DNA of 64,000 nucleotides from a virus: IMG/VR virus record IMGVR_UViG_3300031111_000001, positions 32,001 through 96,000 of that record. One strand, given 5' to 3'. Below are positions 5,862 to 32,589 of the stretch, piece after piece (position 1 is the first letter of the stretch; the number at the start of each line of letters is the position of its first letter). The notes beneath the pieces are model-generated. The model did not search any database, was not told the DNA's origin, and worked only from the letters and a program-made list of their open reading frames with translations. The position numbers and the translations under genes were made by a program.

Positions 5862-6419
5862 ATGTTTGGAATCGCAAGCATTGTGGGGCTTTTGGCCTCC
5901 AAAGGCATCGACATGCTGTCGGATTGTATCGGCAACGCCACCGAGAAGGGCGTCGAGGCGATCACCGACAAAGTCAAGGAAGTGACGGGCATCGACCTGT
6001 CCAACAAGGAAGAGGTTGCCAGTCTCACCCCGGAGCAGGCCCTGGAACTCAAGAAGTTTGAGACGCAGCACGCCGAGTTCTTGCTGGAAATGCGCGTCAA
6101 GGAGGCCAAGCTCTATCTGGAGGACCGGCAAGACGCCCGCGACATGCAGAAAACAGCCCTGAAGCAGGACGACAAGTTCTCCAAACGGTTTGTCCCGGTT
6201 TTGGGCGCGGCTGTGATCCTCGTCTGCCTGGGCTACGCCGTGGCGATCACTTTCATCCCCATCCCCGAGAACAACATCCGCTTCGCCGACACCACCCTTG
6301 GCTTCGCCTTGGGCACCGGCATCGCGACCATTCTGAACTTCTTCTTCGGAACCTCCCACAAGCGGGAGAGCGGCGAGATCGAAGCTGCCGTGGCGTCCAT
6401 CGCCCAGCAGAACAAATAG
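5862..6419 (+). CDS. Holin-like protein
   Basis: EDRQDARDMQ motif followed by two hydrophobic helices and ILNFFFGTS; adjacent to endolysin. Confidence 0.75.
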   Translation: MFGIASIVGLLASKGIDMLSDCIGNATEKGVEAITDKVKEVTGIDLSNKEEVASLTPEQALELKKFETQHAEFLLEMRVKEAKLYLEDRQDARDMQKTALKQDDKFSKRFVPVLGAAVILVCLGYAVAITFIPIPENNIRFADTTLGFALGTGIATILNFFFGTSHKRESGEIEAAVASIAQQNK

Positions 6420-6543
6420 CACATTCACAGACCGCTCTCACTCGCCCTCTGGGCGCGTTTAGCTCCGAATCCGACCTCCGGGTTGGGCCGGGTCCGCAAA
6501 ACGCCTCAGAGGGCGTTTTCTGTGGGGCGAACGAAGGACGACC

Positions 6544-7314
6544 ATGAATATTTCGCAATACAATTTCGACAAGGATATCCGGGTTATCAATATTGGCGAT
6601 GTACACCGGGGCGATCATTGCTGCGACACGGAACTGCTGTACAAGCACATCGACCTAATCGCCAAGGACGAGAACACATTTTGGTTGTCCACGGGCGACC
6701 TCCTAAACACCGCGACACGGGGCGGGAGACATGACAGCATCCACGGCAGCGACATTCTGGAGACGGAGTTCGACAACATTTGTGATGAACTGGCTCCGAT
6801 TGCTGACAAATGCTTGGGCGTCGTTTCCTCCAACCACCCTCACCGTGTCAAGAATCTCACCGGCCTCGATCTCGACAAGGTGATGTGCAAGCAGCTTGGG
6901 ATTCCCTACTTGGGGGACTTCGGCACGCTGAACGTCACTTGCGGGCGATGCAGCTATTTCATCGTCATGCACCACGGTTCGCCGGGTGGCGGCGGGCGCA
7001 TGAAGGGGGCCAAGATCAACGCCCTCGACGGCATGAGCGGCATCATCCAGGGGGCCGACATTTATCTGACCGGCCACACACATCAGTACATGACGCATAT
7101 CAACGAACGGTGCTTCGTGGACCGGAAGCGGAACATAGTGTCCTACCAGAAGGTCTACTTCAATACCTGTGCCCACTACCTGTCGTGGGACGACTCCTAC
7201 GCTCAGAGGTTGCGGCTTGGCCCGGCCCCCAAGGGCGCGACGGAGATCAAGCTGGGCGCATCCATGAACGGGCAGAACTCCAACAAGCGCGTGGAAATCA
7301 ACCTGCTCTCCTAA
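6544..7314 (+). CDS. Calcineurin-like metallophosphoesterase
   Basis: GDVH, TGDLL, SNH, HHG and GHTH motifs. Confidence 0.85.
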   Translation: MNISQYNFDKDIRVINIGDVHRGDHCCDTELLYKHIDLIAKDENTFWLSTGDLLNTATRGGRHDSIHGSDILETEFDNICDELAPIADKCLGVVSSNHPHRVKNLTGLDLDKVMCKQLGIPYLGDFGTLNVTCGRCSYFIVMHHGSPGGGGRMKGAKINALDGMSGIIQGADIYLTGHTHQYMTHINERCFVDRKRNIVSYQKVYFNTCAHYLSWDDSYAQRLRLGPAPKGATEIKLGASMNGQNSNKRVEINLLS

Positions 7315-11653: not shown

Positions 11654-12244
11654 ATGATGGATGCTCTTGGCATCCTTGGGAGTGGAGACGCACTGTTGAC
11701 TGCAATGCCGCTGTCTCACATTTCTAAGGTTCCGTTTCGGCCAGCACCGTTGTTTGACAGGGGATTGTTCTGGAACAACAAGCGGGTTACTATGTTCGCC
11801 GTACCCGTTGAAGAAGCCGCTTTGGTCTTGATGTTGCGAAACGATTTCTGGCGTCCGACGCTCGACGCAGACCCAGCGGAAAGCAAGGTGCTGGTCAACA
11901 ACTTCCTGCTGCATCAACTATCCAAATCGCCAGAGGCAATAGCCCCGTTTGGCATCTGTGGTTCGTGGCACACGCTTGACATGATGGGGCAGCACGAAAC
12001 GATAAAACTGTCTGACGGACAGGCATACTTGGGGGTGGCGCACGGGATGGCGAATTTCTACTATCCAGACTTCGCCAATAACCGCGTTTTTGTGTGTAGC
12101 GTGCCCCCTCACGGGCTTTTAGGGGAGAGGGCGATTGCAGGTGTGCAATCGCCCCCAGAAAGGCCCCTAGAGCCGCTGCGCGGCCTGGGCAGCAAGGGCA
12201 CTGCGCTCGGACTTGGTCATGTTCAGGATCGCCACGTTGGATAG
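11654..12244 (+). CDS. Hypothetical protein on the opposite strand to its neighbourhood
   Basis: Only long ORF filling the thyX-phoH gap; GGGAGA RBS 7 nt before ATG; 3' end overlaps phoH, so the end is uncertain. Confidence 0.45.
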   Translation: MMDALGILGSGDALLTAMPLSHISKVPFRPAPLFDRGLFWNNKRVTMFAVPVEEAALVLMLRNDFWRPTLDADPAESKVLVNNFLLHQLSKSPEAIAPFGICGSWHTLDMMGQHETIKLSDGQAYLGVAHGMANFYYPDFANNRVFVCSVPPHGLLGERAIAGVQSPPERPLEPLRGLGSKGTALGLGHVQDRHVG

Positions 12245-13504
12245 ACCCTGCATGCGCTCCATGGCGTGCGCCAGTCCGCAGTTGGATTTGGTCAAGTAGG
12301 GACTGTCGATCTGCTGAAGGTCGCCCAGCAGGATCAGTTTGGACGAGTTCCCGATCCGGGTGACCAGAGTCTTGATCTCCTTGGGGGTCAGGTTCTGGCA
12401 CTCGTCCACGACCACGATCCGATTCATCAGGGACCGGCCCCGGATGAAGCAGAGGGCGTCCACTTCGATCTGGCCTTTGTCCTTGAGGTCCATGACGGTG
12501 GCACTGTCGTGCTTCAGCAGGAACTCAAGGTTGTCCGTGAAGGGTTTCACCCAGGCTTCCATCTTCTCGTCGAGGTCGCCCGGCAGGAAGCCGATCCCGT
12601 TGCCCACGTCCATGACCACCTTGGTGATCATGATTCGGTCGATGTGGTGCCCGTTGAACTTCTTGGAATGGACCACATGCTCCAGGCCAGCGGCCATGGA
12701 CAACAGGGTCTTGCCGGTGCCCGCGATGCCGTTGCAGATCACGCATTCGATCTTCTCGTCCATCAGCACGTCGGCGAGGAACCGCTGTTCGGCGTTCCGG
12801 GGCTTGATGTGGAAGATGTCGTCCACCTTGCGGATGACCCGCATGTAGCCTTCAGAGAATCGACACAGAGCCGACTGCCCGTTCATCATGTTGCTCATGA
12901 TCTGGTAGCAGCCGTTCACGCGAGGGTTTTCCACCCCAATCTCGGCGGCGTCGAGCTTGCGAAGCTCGTACAACTTGTCGATCATGCCGGGGTCAGCATA
13001 AACGGCCTGGACGGACACGCCCTCGTCGATGTCTGCCTTGTCGGTGAAGTAGGGCTGGGCCACGATGCCCAGAGCGTCAGCCTTGCATCGCATGTTGATA
13101 TCGTTGGTGACGAGAATAATCTCATGGGGGCCGAAACACGCAGTGACGCCTTCGTTTTCGGCCCATTCCTTGAGCCGCCGGGCCACGCCGATGATGTAGT
13201 TGTCGTTGGACCGGCGCAGGGCTGCATGGCTGAACTCGATGTTGTCGGAGTAGACCCGCAAGGTGCCACCATTTTCCAGAACCACCCCCGGAGAAGCCAA
13301 GGCCGACTTGTCCATGTCGCGCAGTTCGTCGATCTTCCGGGCCACGGCGCGGGCGTTCGCGCCCAACTCGCCCGGCTCGTTCTTGAACTTGTCCAGTTCC
13401 TCCAGGGCGGTGAGCGGGATCACCACTTGGTTGTCGTCGAAGCTGGTGATGCTGTCGCAGTCGTGCAGCAGCACGTTGGTGTCCAGCACGAATATCTTAT
13501 TCAC
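12167..13504 (-). CDS. phoH: PIN-domain PhoH-like ATPase
   Basis: N-terminal VLDTNVLL PIN motif; GIAGTGKT, GFLPG, IRGRS, DECQN, LGDLQQID. Confidence 0.92.
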   Translation of the reverse strand: MNKIFVLDTNVLLHDCDSITSFDDNQVVIPLTALEELDKFKNEPGELGANARAVARKIDELRDMDKSALASPGVVLENGGTLRVYSDNIEFSHAALRRSNDNYIIGVARRLKEWAENEGVTACFGPHEIILVTNDINMRCKADALGIVAQPYFTDKADIDEGVSVQAVYADPGMIDKLYELRKLDAAEIGVENPRVNGCYQIMSNMMNGQSALCRFSEGYMRVIRKVDDIFHIKPRNAEQRFLADVLMDEKIECVICNGIAGTGKTLLSMAAGLEHVVHSKKFNGHHIDRIMITKVVMDVGNGIGFLPGDLDEKMEAWVKPFTDNLEFLLKHDSATVMDLKDKGQIEVDALCFIRGRSLMNRIVVVDECQNLTPKEIKTLVTRIGNSSKLILLGDLQQIDSPYLTKSNCGLAHAMERMQGLSNVAILNMTKSERSALAAQAAQRL

Positions 13505-14387
13505 TTGCCCTCGCTTTCAAGTTGAAGGGGAGTTTGTCACAGGTGAACCCTGCGGCCCCTGCATGCCCGCCACCGCCGTACTGCTTGGCGATCACGGACA
13601 CATCCACGTCGAGACGCTCGGTATACATGGAGACGTACCAGTGGCCGCTGGCCGTCCACGCGAAGGGCATGACGGCGTCGTATTCCTTCCAGTTGATCAT
13701 GGAGTCGAACAGCTTGCTCCCGCAGCCCTGCCGGTTCGCGGCAAGGAAGCGAAGGCCATGAAACTCCACAGAGAAGGCAGAGGATTTACAGGATCGCCTG
13801 AAGTCGTTCTCGATGTATTGCTGAACCGTCTCCCCCTGCCGGGTGATTTCTCCGACGTACCCACGGGAATGGAACCGTTCGCTGAAGAGAGTGGTCCACA
13901 TGAGCATCGCATTTTCATGCGCGGGATTCGTATCCTTGAGCCGCATACCGTACTGGAAGGGCAGGACCCGCCCATCAAAGGCATGATCCCACACGTCGTA
14001 TCGTCCCAGCAGGGTGACAGTGAGAGGCATGGGCAGGGGGTCGGAGGCGAAGAAGTATTCCCAGCAAAGCTCACAGGCAGCTTTGCCAAGCTCCCGCTTG
14101 CCCTCGATGAAGATGCCTTCGATGATCTCGTCGGCGCGGGCCTCCTCCATGGCCGTCTTGTGGTGGTCGATCCAGATCAGCCTGTTGCGCTTTGCCAGTC
14201 GGCGCATTTCATCCCATGGAGACAGGCTGAGATCGGCCATGATGACCTTCTCGCCCGGCGGCACCTTACTCCACGGGAATGGTTCGTTATAGTTGAAGGG
14301 GACCATTTTGCAGTCGGGGAACTTGTATTTGACCACGGCCCCAGAACAATGTCCGTCGAGATCGGCAGCGTGATAAAAGCACCACAT
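13497..14387 (-). CDS. DHH/DHHA1 phosphoesterase
   Basis: DLDG, IDHH, YDVW, GGGGHAGAAGF motifs. Confidence 0.9.
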   Translation of the reverse strand: MWCFYHAADLDGHCSGAVVKYKFPDCKMVPFNYNEPFPWSKVPPGEKVIMADLSLSPWDEMRRLAKRNRLIWIDHHKTAMEEARADEIIEGIFIEGKRELGKAACELCWEYFFASDPLPMPLTVTLLGRYDVWDHAFDGRVLPFQYGMRLKDTNPAHENAMLMWTTLFSERFHSRGYVGEITRQGETVQQYIENDFRRSCKSSAFSVEFHGLRFLAANRQGCGSKLFDSMINWKEYDAVMPFAWTASGHWYVSMYTERLDVDVSVIAKQYGGGGHAGAAGFTCDKLPFNLKARASE

Positions 14388-14388
14388 A

Positions 14389-14496
14389 CTACCACCCCAA
14401 GGCGGTACGAATTTTGACGATCTCGGCCTGGATTTCGTCGGACCACTCCACGCCGATGCAGATGCCCAGAATCAGGGCGAAGATGAACCAAGACAT
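14389..14496 (-). CDS. Small membrane peptide (35 aa)
   Basis: MSWFIFALILGICIGVEWSDEIQAEIVKIRTALGW with AAGGA RBS. Confidence 0.5.
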   Translation of the reverse strand: MSWFIFALILGICIGVEWSDEIQAEIVKIRTALGW

Positions 14497-14563
14497 GCTT
14501 TTTCCTTGTGGTATGGACGAAGAAAGGCGGGCCACCGCGAAGTAGCCCGCCTTGTGATGTTGG

Positions 14564-14698
14564 CTACACGCTCTTGAAGTCGGCAAACTTGCGGTCGGCA
14601 AGCTCCTGCTTCTTGCCCGCATTCCAGCGGGTGATCGGGCGGTAGTAGCCAACGATACGGGCCATGGTACAGGTCGTCTTGACCTTCGGTTGCGCCAT
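14564..14698 (-). CDS. Stand-alone glycyl-radical peptide of class III ribonucleotide reductase (44 aa; not in ORF track)
   Basis: MAQPKVKTTCTMARIVGYYRPITRWNAGKKQELADRKFADFKSV contains the NrdD C-terminal RxxGYYRP...WNxGKxQE..DR motif; GGAGG RBS. Confidence 0.9.
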   Translation of the reverse strand: MAQPKVKTTCTMARIVGYYRPITRWNAGKKQELADRKFADFKSV

Positions 14699-14700
14699 GG

Positions 14701-15273
14701 TCACACCTCCTTGTTCGGCTGAACCCATTTCACGGTCCAGCGATTCAGAAGATCACCGGAGAGCTTCTCCAGTGAGGCCCCGTAGTCGTCCTTGTATTTG
14801 GGGAAATCCACGATGCGGAGTTCGCGATATTTCGCGCTGGAGTAGTATTCCAGAGCGCATCGCAAGCGTCCGATGTATTCCTGTTCCGGCATGATGCTGA
14901 CCTCGCTGGTCGGCTTCAAAGACAGGATCACAGACTCAAAGGGATTTCGGATGTTCCTCGGTAGGACCAGTCCGTTGGATTGCAGTGCCAGTGGGCGTCC
15001 GAAGAAGAATCGAACGGCGTTGTGAAACTCCGGGTGGCATGTCGGTTCGCCCCCAGAGAGGACGATGCCGACCTTCTGCGTGTGAAACGCAAGCTGCATC
15101 CGGTTGAGGTGGTGCGCAATGTCCTTGAGGGAATAAACGGCCTCGCCGCGCACCACGATCTTGTTGTGGCAGAAACTGCAATTCAGGTTACATCCATTGA
15201 AGAACAGGGTCATTGCCAATTTGCCGGGGAAGTCGATCATGCCCGTGCAGAACCCGGTGAATGCCTCCATCAT
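14701..15273 (-). CDS. nrdG: Anaerobic RNR activating radical-SAM enzyme
   Basis: IDFPGKLA, GCNLNCSFCHN (CxxxCxxC), LSGGEPT. Confidence 0.9.
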   Translation of the reverse strand: MMEAFTGFCTGMIDFPGKLAMTLFFNGCNLNCSFCHNKIVVRGEAVYSLKDIAHHLNRMQLAFHTQKVGIVLSGGEPTCHPEFHNAVRFFFGRPLALQSNGLVLPRNIRNPFESVILSLKPTSEVSIMPEQEYIGRLRCALEYYSSAKYRELRIVDFPKYKDDYGASLEKLSGDLLNRWTVKWVQPNKEV

Positions 15274-15494
15274 GGAACCCTCCGATCTACCTGATCGATC
15301 AGCTTGGATAGCATTTCGACCATCATGTTCCTGATCCGCTCTTTTGTGTGCTGCCTAATGTATTGGCGTTGGGCGGCAGAGCAGAGTAGATCGGTGTTCA
15401 ATGGAGAAAACCGCACTCGCTCTTGAAGAGCCAAAAGTTGCTCACGAAGGGCGAATGCTGCCAATTGACGGGCAGTCATCGCTGCCCGGCTCAT
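15270..15494 (-). CDS. Hypothetical protein
   Basis: Translationally coupled to HU and nrdG. Confidence 0.55.
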   Translation of the reverse strand: MSRAAMTARQLAAFALREQLLALQERVRFSPLNTDLLCSAAQRQYIRQHTKERIRNMMVEMLSKLIDQVDRRVP

Positions 15495-15769
15495 TAGGCG
15501 TTCAGGGAGGCCTTGAAGGTGCCGCTGACCGTAAACTTCACGGACTTGGTGGCCGGGATCAGAATCTTCTCGCCGGTCTTGGGATTGCGGCCATCACGCG
15601 GGGCACGCTCCACGGGCACCAGCTTGCCGAAGCCGCTGATGGCAACGGTGTCGCCACCGGCCAGCACGTCCTTGATCTCGCCGAAGATCAGGTCCACGGT
15701 GGCCTCGGTCTTGGCTTTGGACAGGCCCAGCTTGGGAGCGATCTGCTCCACGAACTCCATACGATTCAT
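15494..15769 (-). CDS. HU family DNA-binding protein
   Basis: ISGFGK...RAPRDGRNPKTGEKILIPA. Confidence 0.95.
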   Translation of the reverse strand: MNRMEFVEQIAPKLGLSKAKTEATVDLIFGEIKDVLAGGDTVAISGFGKLVPVERAPRDGRNPKTGEKILIPATKSVKFTVSGTFKASLNA

Positions 15770-15806
15770 TGTTGCTCCTTGTTCTTGTATTGCGAAGGGT
15801 TAGAGG

Positions 15807-17648
15807 TTATCCCTCGACCAGTTCGGGATGCTCTTTGCGCAGAGCTTCGATCTGTTCGGGGGTATGTTCGTTCGGGCACGCTTCGTGAATGCCCTGGACC
15901 GGCCCACAGATGGGGCACATTGAGTAGGTCACGTTCAGCCCGAAATAGGGCAGATTGGTGTCGCAGATCATCCGCACCAGAGCCTCGGCGTCCTTCTCGT
16001 CGATCTCATGATCGAGATAGAAGTGCTGGACCGTGCCCCCGGATGGGATCACCTGAAGCTGCGTTTGGGTGGCGAAGACCAGATCAAGCTGATCCTGCAT
16101 GTCAGCCGGGACAAAATGGCTGTTCGTGAAGTACGGCCTGACCTTCAGCCCCTGATGCTCGATGTCGGGGAAGCTCTTGAGAGCCTTCTTTGCCAGCTTG
16201 TAGGACGCGCTTTCGGCAGGGGTGGCCTCAAGATTGAAGAGCGTCCCTGTCTCGTTGATGAAGCGATCCACGTTGGATTTCATGCGATGCAGGACGCCCT
16301 TGGCAAACTCCAGGCCTTCCGGCGAGGCAAAGCCGAAGCTGTCGTTGGTCGCGATGCAAGTGGCCTCCCAGAGGCCCACAAAGCCGATGGTCGTAAAGAA
16401 CGTGTCGAAACGGCGCGGCAGGTTTGCCATGCACATGGGGAAAAACCCCTTGTCGTAAAACTCGTTCACGACCTTGCGCTTCCATAGTTCCTCGTCCTTG
16501 ATCAATTCCATCCAGCGGTCCAGTTCCTCCCAGAAGCTCAAGTCGTTCGCCTTGCAGTGCTGGGCGAGGTACGGGAGGGAGATTGTGACAACCTGAAGGG
16601 AGCCAGTGCTGTCTCCAGCACCAAACAACCCGCCCGTATGGGAACGGAGGTCGTTCAGGTCGAGAGACAGGCGGCAGCACATGCTGCGCACGTCTCTGGG
16701 ATCAAGCCGCTTGTCGCCGGAAGTCACGCCGTTTATGAAGTTCTGAAAGAACGGCGTGCCGTATTTCGCGGTAAGTCTCCAGACCCTGGACCTGATATGG
16801 TCGATTTCAGGATCGTCGAGGAAGTCTTCCGTGACGTTGATGGTCAGGACAGGGAACGTAAAGCCCTTGCCGGTATAGTCGCCCTCGATGAAGATATCCA
16901 AGATCGTGGCACACACAAGCTGCTGCCAGTGTTCCAATTCCCCGTAGGTGCTGTTTTTCACCTTGATTCCGTCTTCGTGATACGAATAGAAATCGTCGAG
17001 GGATTTGCTGCCGATGCTGGCGCGTTGATCTCTCATATCTTCCGGGCACTTCATCGCCAACGTGATGTTGGTGAAGGGTGTCTGACCGCCGTAGCGGTTG
17101 GTCTGGTTCAAATGGAAGATCAACTCTTGGATGCTTTGTCGCACCTCCTCCCGCGTTTGCTGGAAGGCGATCTGGCGCGGCACCCCTTGCTTCTTCTTGT
17201 CGAGGTAGAACTTGTATGCGTAGGCCCCAAGGTACACGTCGATGTCGTTGAATGCGATGGCCCCAGCCACTTCGTTGCACACGGAGCCGATGGTGTTCAC
17301 CATGTGGTTGATGACCGTGCGGAAGTGTTTTGGGGGACCAGACGGCACGGGGCCTGTGTTCATGCCGTTGTTGATCAGCATCGCCATTGATAGGCCGATG
17401 CAGTAAGGGGTCAGGTAGCCCAGTGACAGATCGTGGATATGACAGCCACCAGCCTTGTGGAGGTCCACAAGTTCCCCAAACTCTTCTTCAAGTCGTTTCA
17501 GGTTGTCCCGGTTGAGACAAACCCCGCCAACTGTGAAGAGCAAACCGTTTGGTGTGACTCCCATGTTGGCGTTTTCGTTGTTGTAGTCGCCGCCCGCCAC
17601 GTAATCATCAATGATCGTGTCTATGCGGACGCGAACCTCCTTGGTCAT
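15807..17648 (-). CDS. nrdD: Class III (anaerobic) ribonucleotide reductase catalytic barrel, lacking the glycyl-radical tail
   Basis: NENAN, HIHDL..PYC, FTFPV, RSMCCRL, NLEATPAES, YFTNS, GGTV.H, CPICG; ends without an RxxGY motif. Confidence 0.92.
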   Translation of the reverse strand: MTKEVRVRIDTIIDDYVAGGDYNNENANMGVTPNGLLFTVGGVCLNRDNLKRLEEEFGELVDLHKAGGCHIHDLSLGYLTPYCIGLSMAMLINNGMNTGPVPSGPPKHFRTVINHMVNTIGSVCNEVAGAIAFNDIDVYLGAYAYKFYLDKKKQGVPRQIAFQQTREEVRQSIQELIFHLNQTNRYGGQTPFTNITLAMKCPEDMRDQRASIGSKSLDDFYSYHEDGIKVKNSTYGELEHWQQLVCATILDIFIEGDYTGKGFTFPVLTINVTEDFLDDPEIDHIRSRVWRLTAKYGTPFFQNFINGVTSGDKRLDPRDVRSMCCRLSLDLNDLRSHTGGLFGAGDSTGSLQVVTISLPYLAQHCKANDLSFWEELDRWMELIKDEELWKRKVVNEFYDKGFFPMCMANLPRRFDTFFTTIGFVGLWEATCIATNDSFGFASPEGLEFAKGVLHRMKSNVDRFINETGTLFNLEATPAESASYKLAKKALKSFPDIEHQGLKVRPYFTNSHFVPADMQDQLDLVFATQTQLQVIPSGGTVQHFYLDHEIDEKDAEALVRMICDTNLPYFGLNVTYSMCPICGPVQGIHEACPNEHTPEQIEALRKEHPELVEG

Positions 17649-17723
17649 TCGGAGATCACTCCTTTGTTGAGCAGTTAATCCTCAAGCCTTAACCGGATGA
17701 TACTTGTCGATTGTACTTGATGA

Positions 17724-18257
17724 TTACTGCCCGGAGTGACCGAAGCCGCCTTCCCCGCGTTCGGAGTCGGCCAATTCGTTTGCCACCACGAACTTCAGAT
17801 TACGATTGATGACGGGCTTGATGACGCCCTGCGCGATCCTGTCGCCCTTTTTGATGATCAAGGGCATGTTCATTGTCACGATGCCCAGGTCAGCCATGTT
17901 CGTGACGTGGCCGTCGATATCCACCTCGATAGTGTCCTTGCCTTCGTACTGGGCATTCATCAGGCAATGGACGATTATGTTCAGTGGGCCTCGGTAGCCT
18001 TCGTCCACGGTGCCGGGCGAGTTCTTGATGATGTAGGGGGTTTCGAGGGCCATGCCGCTACGCGGACGGACCTGCATTTCGGTGTTTGGGGGAAGTTCCA
18101 TCGAGAGCCCGGTCTGAATCACGACAGTTTCGCCGGGCAGGACGATCACATCCTCGATGGTGTAAAAGTCAAAACCAGCATCGCCTGCTTTGGCGATGGT
18201 TGGGATAACGGCGTCAGGATGCCGTTTTCTCCACTTCACAGTCTGCAATCGCTGCAC
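17724..18257 (-). CDS. dut: Trimeric dUTPase
   Basis: DAGFD, PRSG, GTVDEGYRG, GDRIAQ, RGEGGFGHSG. Confidence 0.95.
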   Translation of the reverse strand: MQRLQTVKWRKRHPDAVIPTIAKAGDAGFDFYTIEDVIVLPGETVVIQTGLSMELPPNTEMQVRPRSGMALETPYIIKNSPGTVDEGYRGPLNIIVHCLMNAQYEGKDTIEVDIDGHVTNMADLGIVTMNMPLIIKKGDRIAQGVIKPVINRNLKFVVANELADSERGEGGFGHSGQ

Positions 18258-21188: not shown

Positions 21189-21264
21189 TGGGGAGATCGG
21201 GCAGAATCGAACTTCCACTCCACGGGTCACAACCGTGTGCTTTGACCATTAAGCTACGAACTCC
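21189..21264 (-). tRNA. tRNA-His(GUG)
   Basis: Cloverleaf with anticodon loop TTGTGAC, G-1:C73 pair and encoded CCA; one mismatch each in acceptor and T stems. Confidence 0.9.
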
Positions 21265-31584: not shown

Positions 31585-32589
31585 TTACTCCTGACAGGCA
31601 CCCAGAATGGATGCCTCAAGGTCGGTGTCAGCCGGGGTGGACGCCACGGGAGGCGCGGCGTCAGGGGCCGGGGCGGGAACGCCATAGCCCGGAGGCAGTT
31701 CGCCCAACTGACTGGAGGCGGGAGCCGCCGGGGCGGCAGGAGTCGCATCGTAGGTCGTCGGGGCCTGGGCAGGGGCCGCAGCAGGAGCAGCGGCAGGGGC
31801 AGCAGTGCCGGGAGCGGCGTTCTGTTTGCCGCCCCGGCGGGCCTCGATGTTCCGGTTCATGATCTCGATGGTTTCCAGAGCGGCCATGTGTTGGTCGTAG
31901 AGCTTGCGAATCGGCTCCATGTCGCCACCGGGGCCAGCCATGAACTGGCCCTTGGTCAGGACCGGCTCAAAGTAGGTGATGCCGCCGTTCTTCTTCATGA
32001 CGCTGGAAACGTCGATGGAGAGCATGTAGGGCTGCACCGGCTGGGGGCCGTTGGCGGTCTGGATGGAGAAGAACGAGCGATCACGCAGCATATCGAAGAA
32101 CGGCTTGTAGCCGCTGCGCTTGGCGTAGTGAATGCACTGGACGTGTTCGCCGTCCTCGGTGATAGCGATGCAGAAGATGACCATCTGCGCGTTGCAGCGA
32201 GGGTTGGCGGTTTCGGCACGGTGAGGGCAGGTCTTGCCGCACTTGTAGCCGTAGTTCACGCCGAAGGCACCCTCGGAGAAGTCCTTGAACAGGACGCAGG
32301 AGCAGTTCTTCTTCTGGTCGGACGGGTGGTACAGGCTGTAGCTGTGACGCAGCGCAAGAATGATGATGGACTTCACGGCCTTGCCTTCGTCCACGATGTT
32401 CTGCTGCTGGTCCTTCTTCATGCCCACAATCCACGTTCCGGGGCGGTGGGAGATACCCAACTCGTTCTGGTTGATTCGCAACTGCGGAATGGATGCACGC
32501 TGCTCCACTCCGGTATCGCTCTGCGCGGCCATCTTGTTCAGTTCGGCCACCATGGCAGCGTCAACGGTGGCGGGGACGTTGGTCGTCAT
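31585..32589 (-). CDS. Putative single-stranded DNA-binding protein
   Basis: Beta-rich core, P/A-rich linker, acidic-hydrophobic C-terminus; lies next to recA. Confidence 0.55.
   Translation of the reverse strand: MTTNVPATVDAAMVAELNKMAAQSDTGVEQRASIPQLRINQNELGISHRPGTWIVGMKKDQQQNIVDEGKAVKSIIILALRHSYSLYHPSDQKKNCSCVLFKDFSEGAFGVNYGYKCGKTCPHRAETANPRCNAQMVIFCIAITEDGEHVQCIHYAKRSGYKPFFDMLRDRSFFSIQTANGPQPVQPYMLSIDVSSVMKKNGGITYFEPVLTKGQFMAGPGGDMEPIRKLYDQHMAALETIEIMNRNIEARRGGKQNAAPGTAAPAAAPAAAPAQAPTTYDATPAAPAAPASSQLGELPPGYGVPAPAPDAAPPVASTPADTDLEASILGACQE

Follow-up and report, generated by a model that had tools for sequence, protein, structure and literature searches.

We describe here a gene cluster for the anaerobic (class III) ribonucleotide reductase (RNR) in a stretch of viral DNA of 64,000 nucleotides, referred to below as the window, which corresponds to positions 32,001 to 96,000 of the IMG/VR virus record IMGVR_UViG_3300031111_000001. 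The source record has 114,562 bp, carries direct terminal repeats and is rated complete. In this cluster the C-terminal loop of the reductase NrdD, with the motif of the radical glycine, is found in a small open reading frame (ORF) of its own. The large product is called here the body or barrel, and the small one the tail or peptide. The nrd genes are tightly packed on one strand, the run from nrdD to the tail comprising five genes, and the features, from upstream to downstream, are as follows:

17724-18257, minus strand: dUTPase, directly upstream of nrdD (PF00692, E 4.4e-21).
15807-17648, minus strand: nrdD body of 613 aa, a class III RNR barrel with a zinc ribbon and a short C-terminal helix, without the radical glycine (PF13597).
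15494-15769, minus strand: HU-family DNA-binding protein (PF00216, E 2.2e-28, model positions 1-90 of 90).
15270-15494, minus strand: ORF of 74 aa with function unassigned, overlapping the stop codon of HU at its beginning and the start codon of nrdG at its end.
14701-15273, minus strand: nrdG-like activase of 190 aa, a radical S-adenosylmethionine (SAM) protein (PF04055, E 2.9e-10).
14706-14710, minus strand: GGAGG ribosome-binding site of the tail ORF, lying within the end of nrdG (read from the sequence).
14564-14698, minus strand: predicted glycyl-radical subunit of 44 aa, the detached C-terminal loop of NrdD (PF13597).
14524-14553, minus strand: GC-rich hairpin of 13 bp, 10 nt past the stop codon of the tail (RNA folding).

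In the textbook view a glycyl-radical enzyme is one chain, whose C-terminal radical domain has to move out of the barrel towards the activase. Exposure to O2 breaks the chain at the radical glycine.

Comparison of the two NrdD products with family profiles, which had been suggested in an earlier, sequence-only reading of this DNA, revealed how they relate to each other. The body matches positions 1-534 of the 562 positions of PF13597 (E 3.5e-120, 402.8 bits) and the 44-aa ORF matches positions 534-560 (E 2.4e-7). The two products are thus exactly complementary on the family model. With TIGR02487 the body covers positions 1-545 of 581, at 336.4 bits against a cut-off of 326.35, and the peptide covers positions 553-579; the more specific model NF006126 gave the body 500.9, which is under its cut-off of 548. 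The cut point lies just past the zinc ribbon. The ribbon segment, a predicted four-ligand zinc site, reads Cys-x-x-Cys and, nine residues on, Cys-x-x-x-His, and among the relatives the second and fourth ligands may be either Cys or His. The body terminates 23 residues past the second of these zinc-ligand motifs, and its end region lacks a radical-glycine motif. The observation of the sequence-only reading that NrdD stops soon after its zinc-binding segment and lacks an RxxGY motif was therefore borne out.

The barrel is intact despite the missing glycine. Cys83 and the finger-loop pair Cys324/Cys325 are invariant in an alignment of 26 clade sequences; it is by alignment only that they correspond to catalytic residues in enzymes of solved structure. 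The single-chain AlphaFold2 model of the body is confident (predicted local distance difference test score, pLDDT, 86.5; predicted template-modelling score, pTM, 0.86), with low certainty mainly at the finger loop, residues 325-345. It is this loop that packs against the glycine loop in one-piece enzymes. At the C-terminus of the model, the zinc-ribbon strands (568-585) are followed by an extra short helix (597-606). All of the matches listed within the first 35 ranks of a Foldseek search were class III RNRs (E ~1e-24 to 3e-19, template-modelling (TM) scores 0.63-0.73). By its model the body has the class III RNR fold, and it looks fully functional.

The tail has a start region of its own, which consists of GGAGG, a spacer of 7 nt and the ATG at 14698. 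The nrdG stop codon, TGA at 14701-14703, ends 2 nt before this ATG. An alternative in-frame ATG upstream, at 14728, would give a product of 54 aa; the preferred length of 44 aa is within the size range of the homologous peptides. For the radical SAM protein, TIGR02495 (NrdG2) was the best NCBIfam match (E 3.9e-17, 62 bits). The distance from the barrel stop to the tail start is 1108 nt, with HU, the 74-aa ORF and nrdG in between, and the 74-aa ORF has no Pfam, NCBIfam or PHROG match. The placement of the tail at these coordinates, with its own GGAGG and after HU, a hypothetical gene and nrdG, holds in every particular, as does the earlier conclusion that a frameshift cannot explain the split, since the tail forms a reading frame of its own, equipped with a ribosome-binding site, and three genes separate it from the body.

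The spacing of the two parts also bears on the idea that they make one chain after all, being joined by RNA splicing, protein trans-splicing or recoding. Phage T4 nrdD has a group I intron and relatives of the window's barrel have inteins, both of which speak for it. Nevertheless, the 1.1 kb between the parts is filled by three protein genes with conserved frames, one of which is the required activase. Rfam, group I and group II introns included, gave no match in 14200-18000 at E up to 1, neither piece had an intein match in Pfam, and a peptide of 44 aa could not accommodate half of a split intein as well as the tail. We regard such a joining as very improbable.

The wider genome was scanned for other RNRs and glycyl-radical domains. 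The NRDD scan of the complete genome matched only the body and the tail, so a second NrdD was not found; nor was a class I or class II RNR large subunit found in the complete 114.6-kb genome. The glycyl-radical domain of the pyruvate formate-lyase (PFL) type, PF01228, had no match in the genome and none on the 44-aa peptide. With no other RNR in a complete genome, the split NrdD is the phage's only RNR, and with no other NRDD, class I/II large subunit or PFL-type domain present, the barrel would be useless without the peptide. The peptide would therefore be an obligate subunit and not a spare. The earlier analogy with GrcA, which serves an enzyme with a glycine of its own, is not supported in this strict sense, as the barrel lacks the glycine loop and the genome lacks a second NrdD.

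Taken together, the split NrdD most likely represents an obligate two-subunit class III RNR, a proposal that is based on the sequences of its parts. The 613-aa protein would contribute the ten-stranded barrel, the finger-loop cysteines and the zinc ribbon, while the 44-aa peptide would contribute a beta-hairpin and a loop bearing the radical glycine, G17. We infer that the two pieces assemble, that the radical is formed on the free peptide and that the complex is active. The peptide is expected to dock non-covalently with its G17 loop beside the finger-loop cysteine, in the manner of the covalent C-terminus of one-piece NrdD, and NrdG would use SAM to generate the radical on the peptide. Translation of the peptide would be coupled to that of nrdG, or of whichever gene precedes the tail, and the coupling to nrdG means that activase and substrate would be made together.

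Conservation of the arrangement was examined in IMG/VR phage loci obtained by an alignment-based scan (n = 48), over whose six-frame ORFs a hidden Markov model (HMM) of the tail was run. The closest barrel homologues (P0003-P0006) are 63-70% identical. In the tree described below, all 26 clade barrels, which are 47-68% identical to the window's, about 600-640 aa long and without an ATP-cone, end at the same point and lack the glycine motif. Two candidates for a fused NrdD, P0014 and P0025, were rejected as false positives of the regular expression, which had picked up a similar motif inside the zinc ribbon. At all eight close-clade loci that could be read (L003/4, L005/6, L007/8, L009, L029 and L043), whose barrels are 46-52% identical, a separate ORF downstream on the same strand encodes the tail, whereas the more distant phage NrdDs (32-36% identical) carry a fused tail. 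The gene order in the window and at every close-clade locus is body, nrdG, tail, and at each related phage locus the gene after the barrel is 36-45% identical to the window's nrdG. HU and the 74-aa ORF stand between barrel and nrdG in the window only, being absent there in L003, L005, L007, L009, L029 and L043. A blastn search of the region against GenBank phages gave no match, and a single-sequence scan of viral contigs gave no relatives.

The starts of the clade tails overlap or nearly abut the upstream stop codon (TTGA in L003, ATGA in L029, a gap of a few nt in L005) and are usually preceded by a purine-rich site. In L007 and L009, a dUTPase-like ORF sits before the tail. Such ORFs, whose likeness to dUTPase is that of a C-terminal motif read from ORF ends only, adjoin the nrd cluster or sit inside it in L003, L005, L007, L009, L029 and L043, and the dUTPase is part of a conserved nucleotide-metabolism module. 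Seven tails were aligned, six of them from phage relatives, with 43-57% identity to the window's peptide; the invariant positions are M1, G17, Y18, N26, G28, K29, E32, D35 and R36.

Decay of the gene was weighed against these data. On that account nrdD was broken by a rearrangement and the small ORF is an unused leftover, which would accord with the gene fragments that are common in phage genomes and with the fragmented nrdD reported for Aeromonas phage phiAS4 (Dwivedi et al. 2013). Yet the same break point and a tail ORF with a perfect motif are kept across barrels 46-52% identical and across bacterial phyla, the ribosome-binding sites and the start/stop coupling are retained, and the ORFs of barrel, NrdG and tail are all intact. 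Decay is therefore considered very improbable. That the break point, the small ORF, its motif and the coupling have all been kept despite this divergence points to purifying selection on an enzyme encoded by two genes, and the split is not accidental.

Several further features of the phage loci were observed. One distant phage locus, L041 (8007-10645), with a body 30% identical, has a split NrdD in the order body, tail, nrdG and is the only such phage locus; its tail is divergent, with Lys-Pro-Ile ahead of Gly-Tyr in place of the usual Arg-x-x. Many clade bodies contain one or two insertions of 150-600 aa (L007:7941-10322, L009:2911-5211, L029:1299-4940 and L043:8001-10829, as well as P0022, P0024, P0027 and P0030), and for several library homologues the precomputed annotation lists intein and HNH domains (PF14890, PF13392). 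This one gene is thus naturally split at its tail and has also been a recurrent target of inteins.

Searches with the tail itself gave results that depended on the method. The word-indexed search with the 44-aa peptide returned only the self-match, which is explained by its low sensitivity, as a profile search without a word index gave thousands. With phmmer no match was obtained among the PDB sequences, and PHROGs gave none either; tblastn against phages gave two weak matches, both adjoining ordinary NrdD genes. When the profile of the phage tails was run against 1.84 billion cluster representatives, 5076 proteins were found at E up to 0.001, with 563 of them at E up to 1e-10. Among the best 150 matches, 142 are no longer than 120 aa, and several library tails of 39-50 aa are similar to the window's peptide from end to end. 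The longer matches comprise C-terminal NrdD fragments, one fusion of a tail with glutaredoxin, and tails joined to DUF669, to a peptidoglycan-binding domain and to a topoisomerase fragment, the last three of which may be merged gene calls; no NrdG-tail fusion was seen among them. Two chimeras were recorded as P0306 and P0194, namely a 146-aa protein with zinc ribbon, tail and a glutaredoxin/thioredoxin-like domain, and a 112-aa protein with phage DUF669 and tail, of which the latter may be a merged gene call. In P0180, P0182 and P0187, free-standing tails show the glycine motif twice in tandem as near-exact repeats, which are either assembly artefacts or real duplications.

Many cellular NrdDs among the barrel homologues also lack the tail. 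The bacterial scan took one genome per species and used an alignment of tail-less proteins as the query, giving 80 loci of which 76 could be assessed. In 67 of the 76, a sample chosen by similarity to tail-less proteins, a separate tail ORF follows the body after 14-500 nt and is itself followed by nrdG; the remaining 9 are fused. The split loci include those of Stutzerimonas stutzeri, Pseudomonas brassicacearum, Thiobacillus denitrificans, Microbulbifer, Ottowia, Roseateles and candidate-phyla bacteria. Seven bacterial junctions were read, six from named isolates and one from a metagenome-assembled genome of Moraniibacteriota, and at each the small ORF has its own start codon, mostly behind a purine-rich site. 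RefSeq already lists the bacterial tail products (49-68 aa), usually with the full enzyme's name or simply called 'oxidoreductase', for instance in Pseudomonas and Stutzerimonas (L122:8061-8213, L130:8015-8173). The caution that the arrangement might not be unique proved well founded, since a phage clade has conserved it and many bacteria have a comparable split.

An unrooted FastTree tree of 69 bodies placed the fused sequences on one side of a well-supported branch, and the label 'tail-less' needs one change when the two regular-expression false positives are set aside. A single change of state is enough to account for this, and the splits of the phages and of the bacteria may share one origin. 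The phage lineage probably inherited a gene already split in the common bacterial manner (barrel, tail, nrdG), and the order would then have changed to barrel, nrdG, tail.

Some of the results weigh against the two-subunit enzyme and the history proposed for it. The activase scores under the curated NrdG cut-offs, with 62 bits against 131 for TIGR02495. The choice of bacterial loci by similarity to tail-less proteins means that 67 of 76 overstates the general frequency of the split. The unrooted tree fits either direction, from split to fused or the reverse. Finally, the hairpin past the tail, which is stable (-25.6 kcal/mol, z -4.5, none of 200 shuffles being as stable) and likely marks the end of the operon, has a weak T-run and was missed by a scan for consensus terminators.

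A further proposal would add to the obligate-subunit reading without replacing it. In this proposal the peptide is an exchangeable spare part, a diffusible GrcA-like radical cofactor which is swapped after O2 cleavage and perhaps docks into O2-truncated NrdD of the host. Glycyl-radical enzymes are cut by O2 at the radical glycine, and PFL damaged like this is rescued by GrcA (PMC8683613, PMC13450708); a detached piece of 44 aa costs little to replace and is translationally coupled to the activase, and free-standing tails are very numerous. Against these stand a barrel without its own glycine and the lack of a second NrdD, so that there is nothing to which the peptide could be spare, as well as the absence of linked oxidative-stress genes. 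The HU homologue search gave no hint of the host. We consider a spare part of this kind improbable. A true exchangeable radical cofactor, which NrdG would activate free in solution with no flip-out of a domain and which would then dock and be replaced after O2 cleavage, is rated as unlikely. A detached loop would plausibly ease both activation and replacement, and the peptide might re-arm an O2-truncated host NrdD.

Returning to the two-subunit enzyme, its consequences are both practical and conceptual. The radical loop of 44 residues would be a minimal natural substrate of NrdG, useful for electron paramagnetic resonance (EPR) spectroscopy, structures and kinetics, and the two-piece NrdD allows a direct test of whether a detached loop helps activation or repair after exposure to oxygen. 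For annotation, the large ORF alone would be an incomplete enzyme in the phage clade and in many bacteria including Pseudomonas. The small tail ORF is easily missed or named uninformatively, and studies of nrdD in Pseudomonas and Stutzerimonas may overlook a third gene of the nrdDG cluster. Here a phage whose sole RNR is the anaerobic one keeps this enzyme in two pieces and its peptide linked to the activase gene. If the exchangeable cofactor were true, the phage and many bacteria with split NrdD would have a class III RNR tolerant of oxygen damage; the spare-part principle would extend beyond formate lyases, and a minimal peptide substrate would be at hand for studies of glycyl-radical installation.

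The surroundings of the cluster contain other features. Directly downstream lies a DHH/DHHA1 phosphoesterase-like protein (13497-14387, minus strand), followed by a PIN-PhoH fusion (12167-13504, minus strand) whose start overlaps the preceding stop. In L029 a long ORF after the tail ORF (5952-7229) shares a C-terminal motif with the window's PhoH, the likeness being one of this motif alone. An ORF of 35 codons (14389-14496, minus strand) with a hydrophobic N-terminal half starts 28 nt past the hairpin and has no family match. The sole tRNA gene of the 64-kb window is tRNA-His (GTG) at 21189-21263, minus strand.

Much of what has been described here has precedents. Class III RNR, NrdG, split class I and class II RNRs and PFL spare parts are all known, and the small tail ORFs themselves are already in public annotation. 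In full-text literature, from which most subscription journals are outside coverage, no paper was found that describes a class III RNR with its radical loop as a separate gene. The contribution of the window is a phage clade that places nrdG between body and tail, with two extra genes also lying between them in the window itself.

The closest structural comparison is with the one-piece NrdD/NrdG systems of Thermotoga maritima (4COI/4U3E), phage T4 (1H78/1HK8), Prevotella copri (8P2S) and S. thermophilus (9D3X), with which the body shares its fold at the TM scores given above. The family model, the finger-loop cysteines, the zinc-ribbon motif, the motif of the radical glycine and an adjacent radical SAM activase are common to both. 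The difference is that in the window the last ~28 model positions, with the radical glycine, form a separate polypeptide, while the body ends in the extra short helix 597-606 and has no ATP-cone.

The closest genetic comparison is with the bacterial two-gene NrdDs (Stutzerimonas stutzeri WP_103456385.1, Pseudomonas, Thiobacillus denitrificans WP_018077921.1, Ottowia, Microbulbifer and candidate phyla). These share with the window the break point past the zinc ribbon, a small glycine-motif ORF (49-68 aa there) with its own ribosome-binding site, and an nrdG in the same cluster. In the bacteria the tail comes directly after the body (14-500 nt) and nrdG is last, whereas the phage clade puts nrdG between them, couples the tail to the upstream gene and, in the window, has HU and the 74-aa ORF between as well. 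The bacterial bodies mostly have the ATP-cone that the phage body lacks.

The PFL spare parts GrcA/YfiD of E. coli and Y06I (vs.6) of phage T4 resemble the peptide in being small free-standing proteins whose sole recognisable feature is the glycyl-radical loop and which are presumably activated by a radical SAM activase, Y06I being a phage-borne precedent. Nevertheless, GrcA belongs to PF01228 and the tail to PF13597, so the peptide is not homologous to GrcA, and the enzyme for which GrcA is a backup possesses a glycine of its own, unlike the window's body. Such spare parts were known only for formate lyases according to a 2026 review (PMC13450708).

Division of a catalytic RNR subunit over two genes with non-covalent assembly, as is proposed for the window, is found in NrdJa/NrdJb of Pseudomonas aeruginosa (PMC4520616) and, going by the report cited in PMC3653736, in NrdA-a/NrdA-b of Aeromonas phage Aeh1. 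These are class II and class I enzymes with other break points and with a small piece that lacks the radical-storing residue. The split nrdD genes so far published for phages go back to introns, inteins or fragmentation (PMC3653736), unlike the arrangement in the window, in which the glycine loop stands as a small gene of its own behind that of its putative activase.

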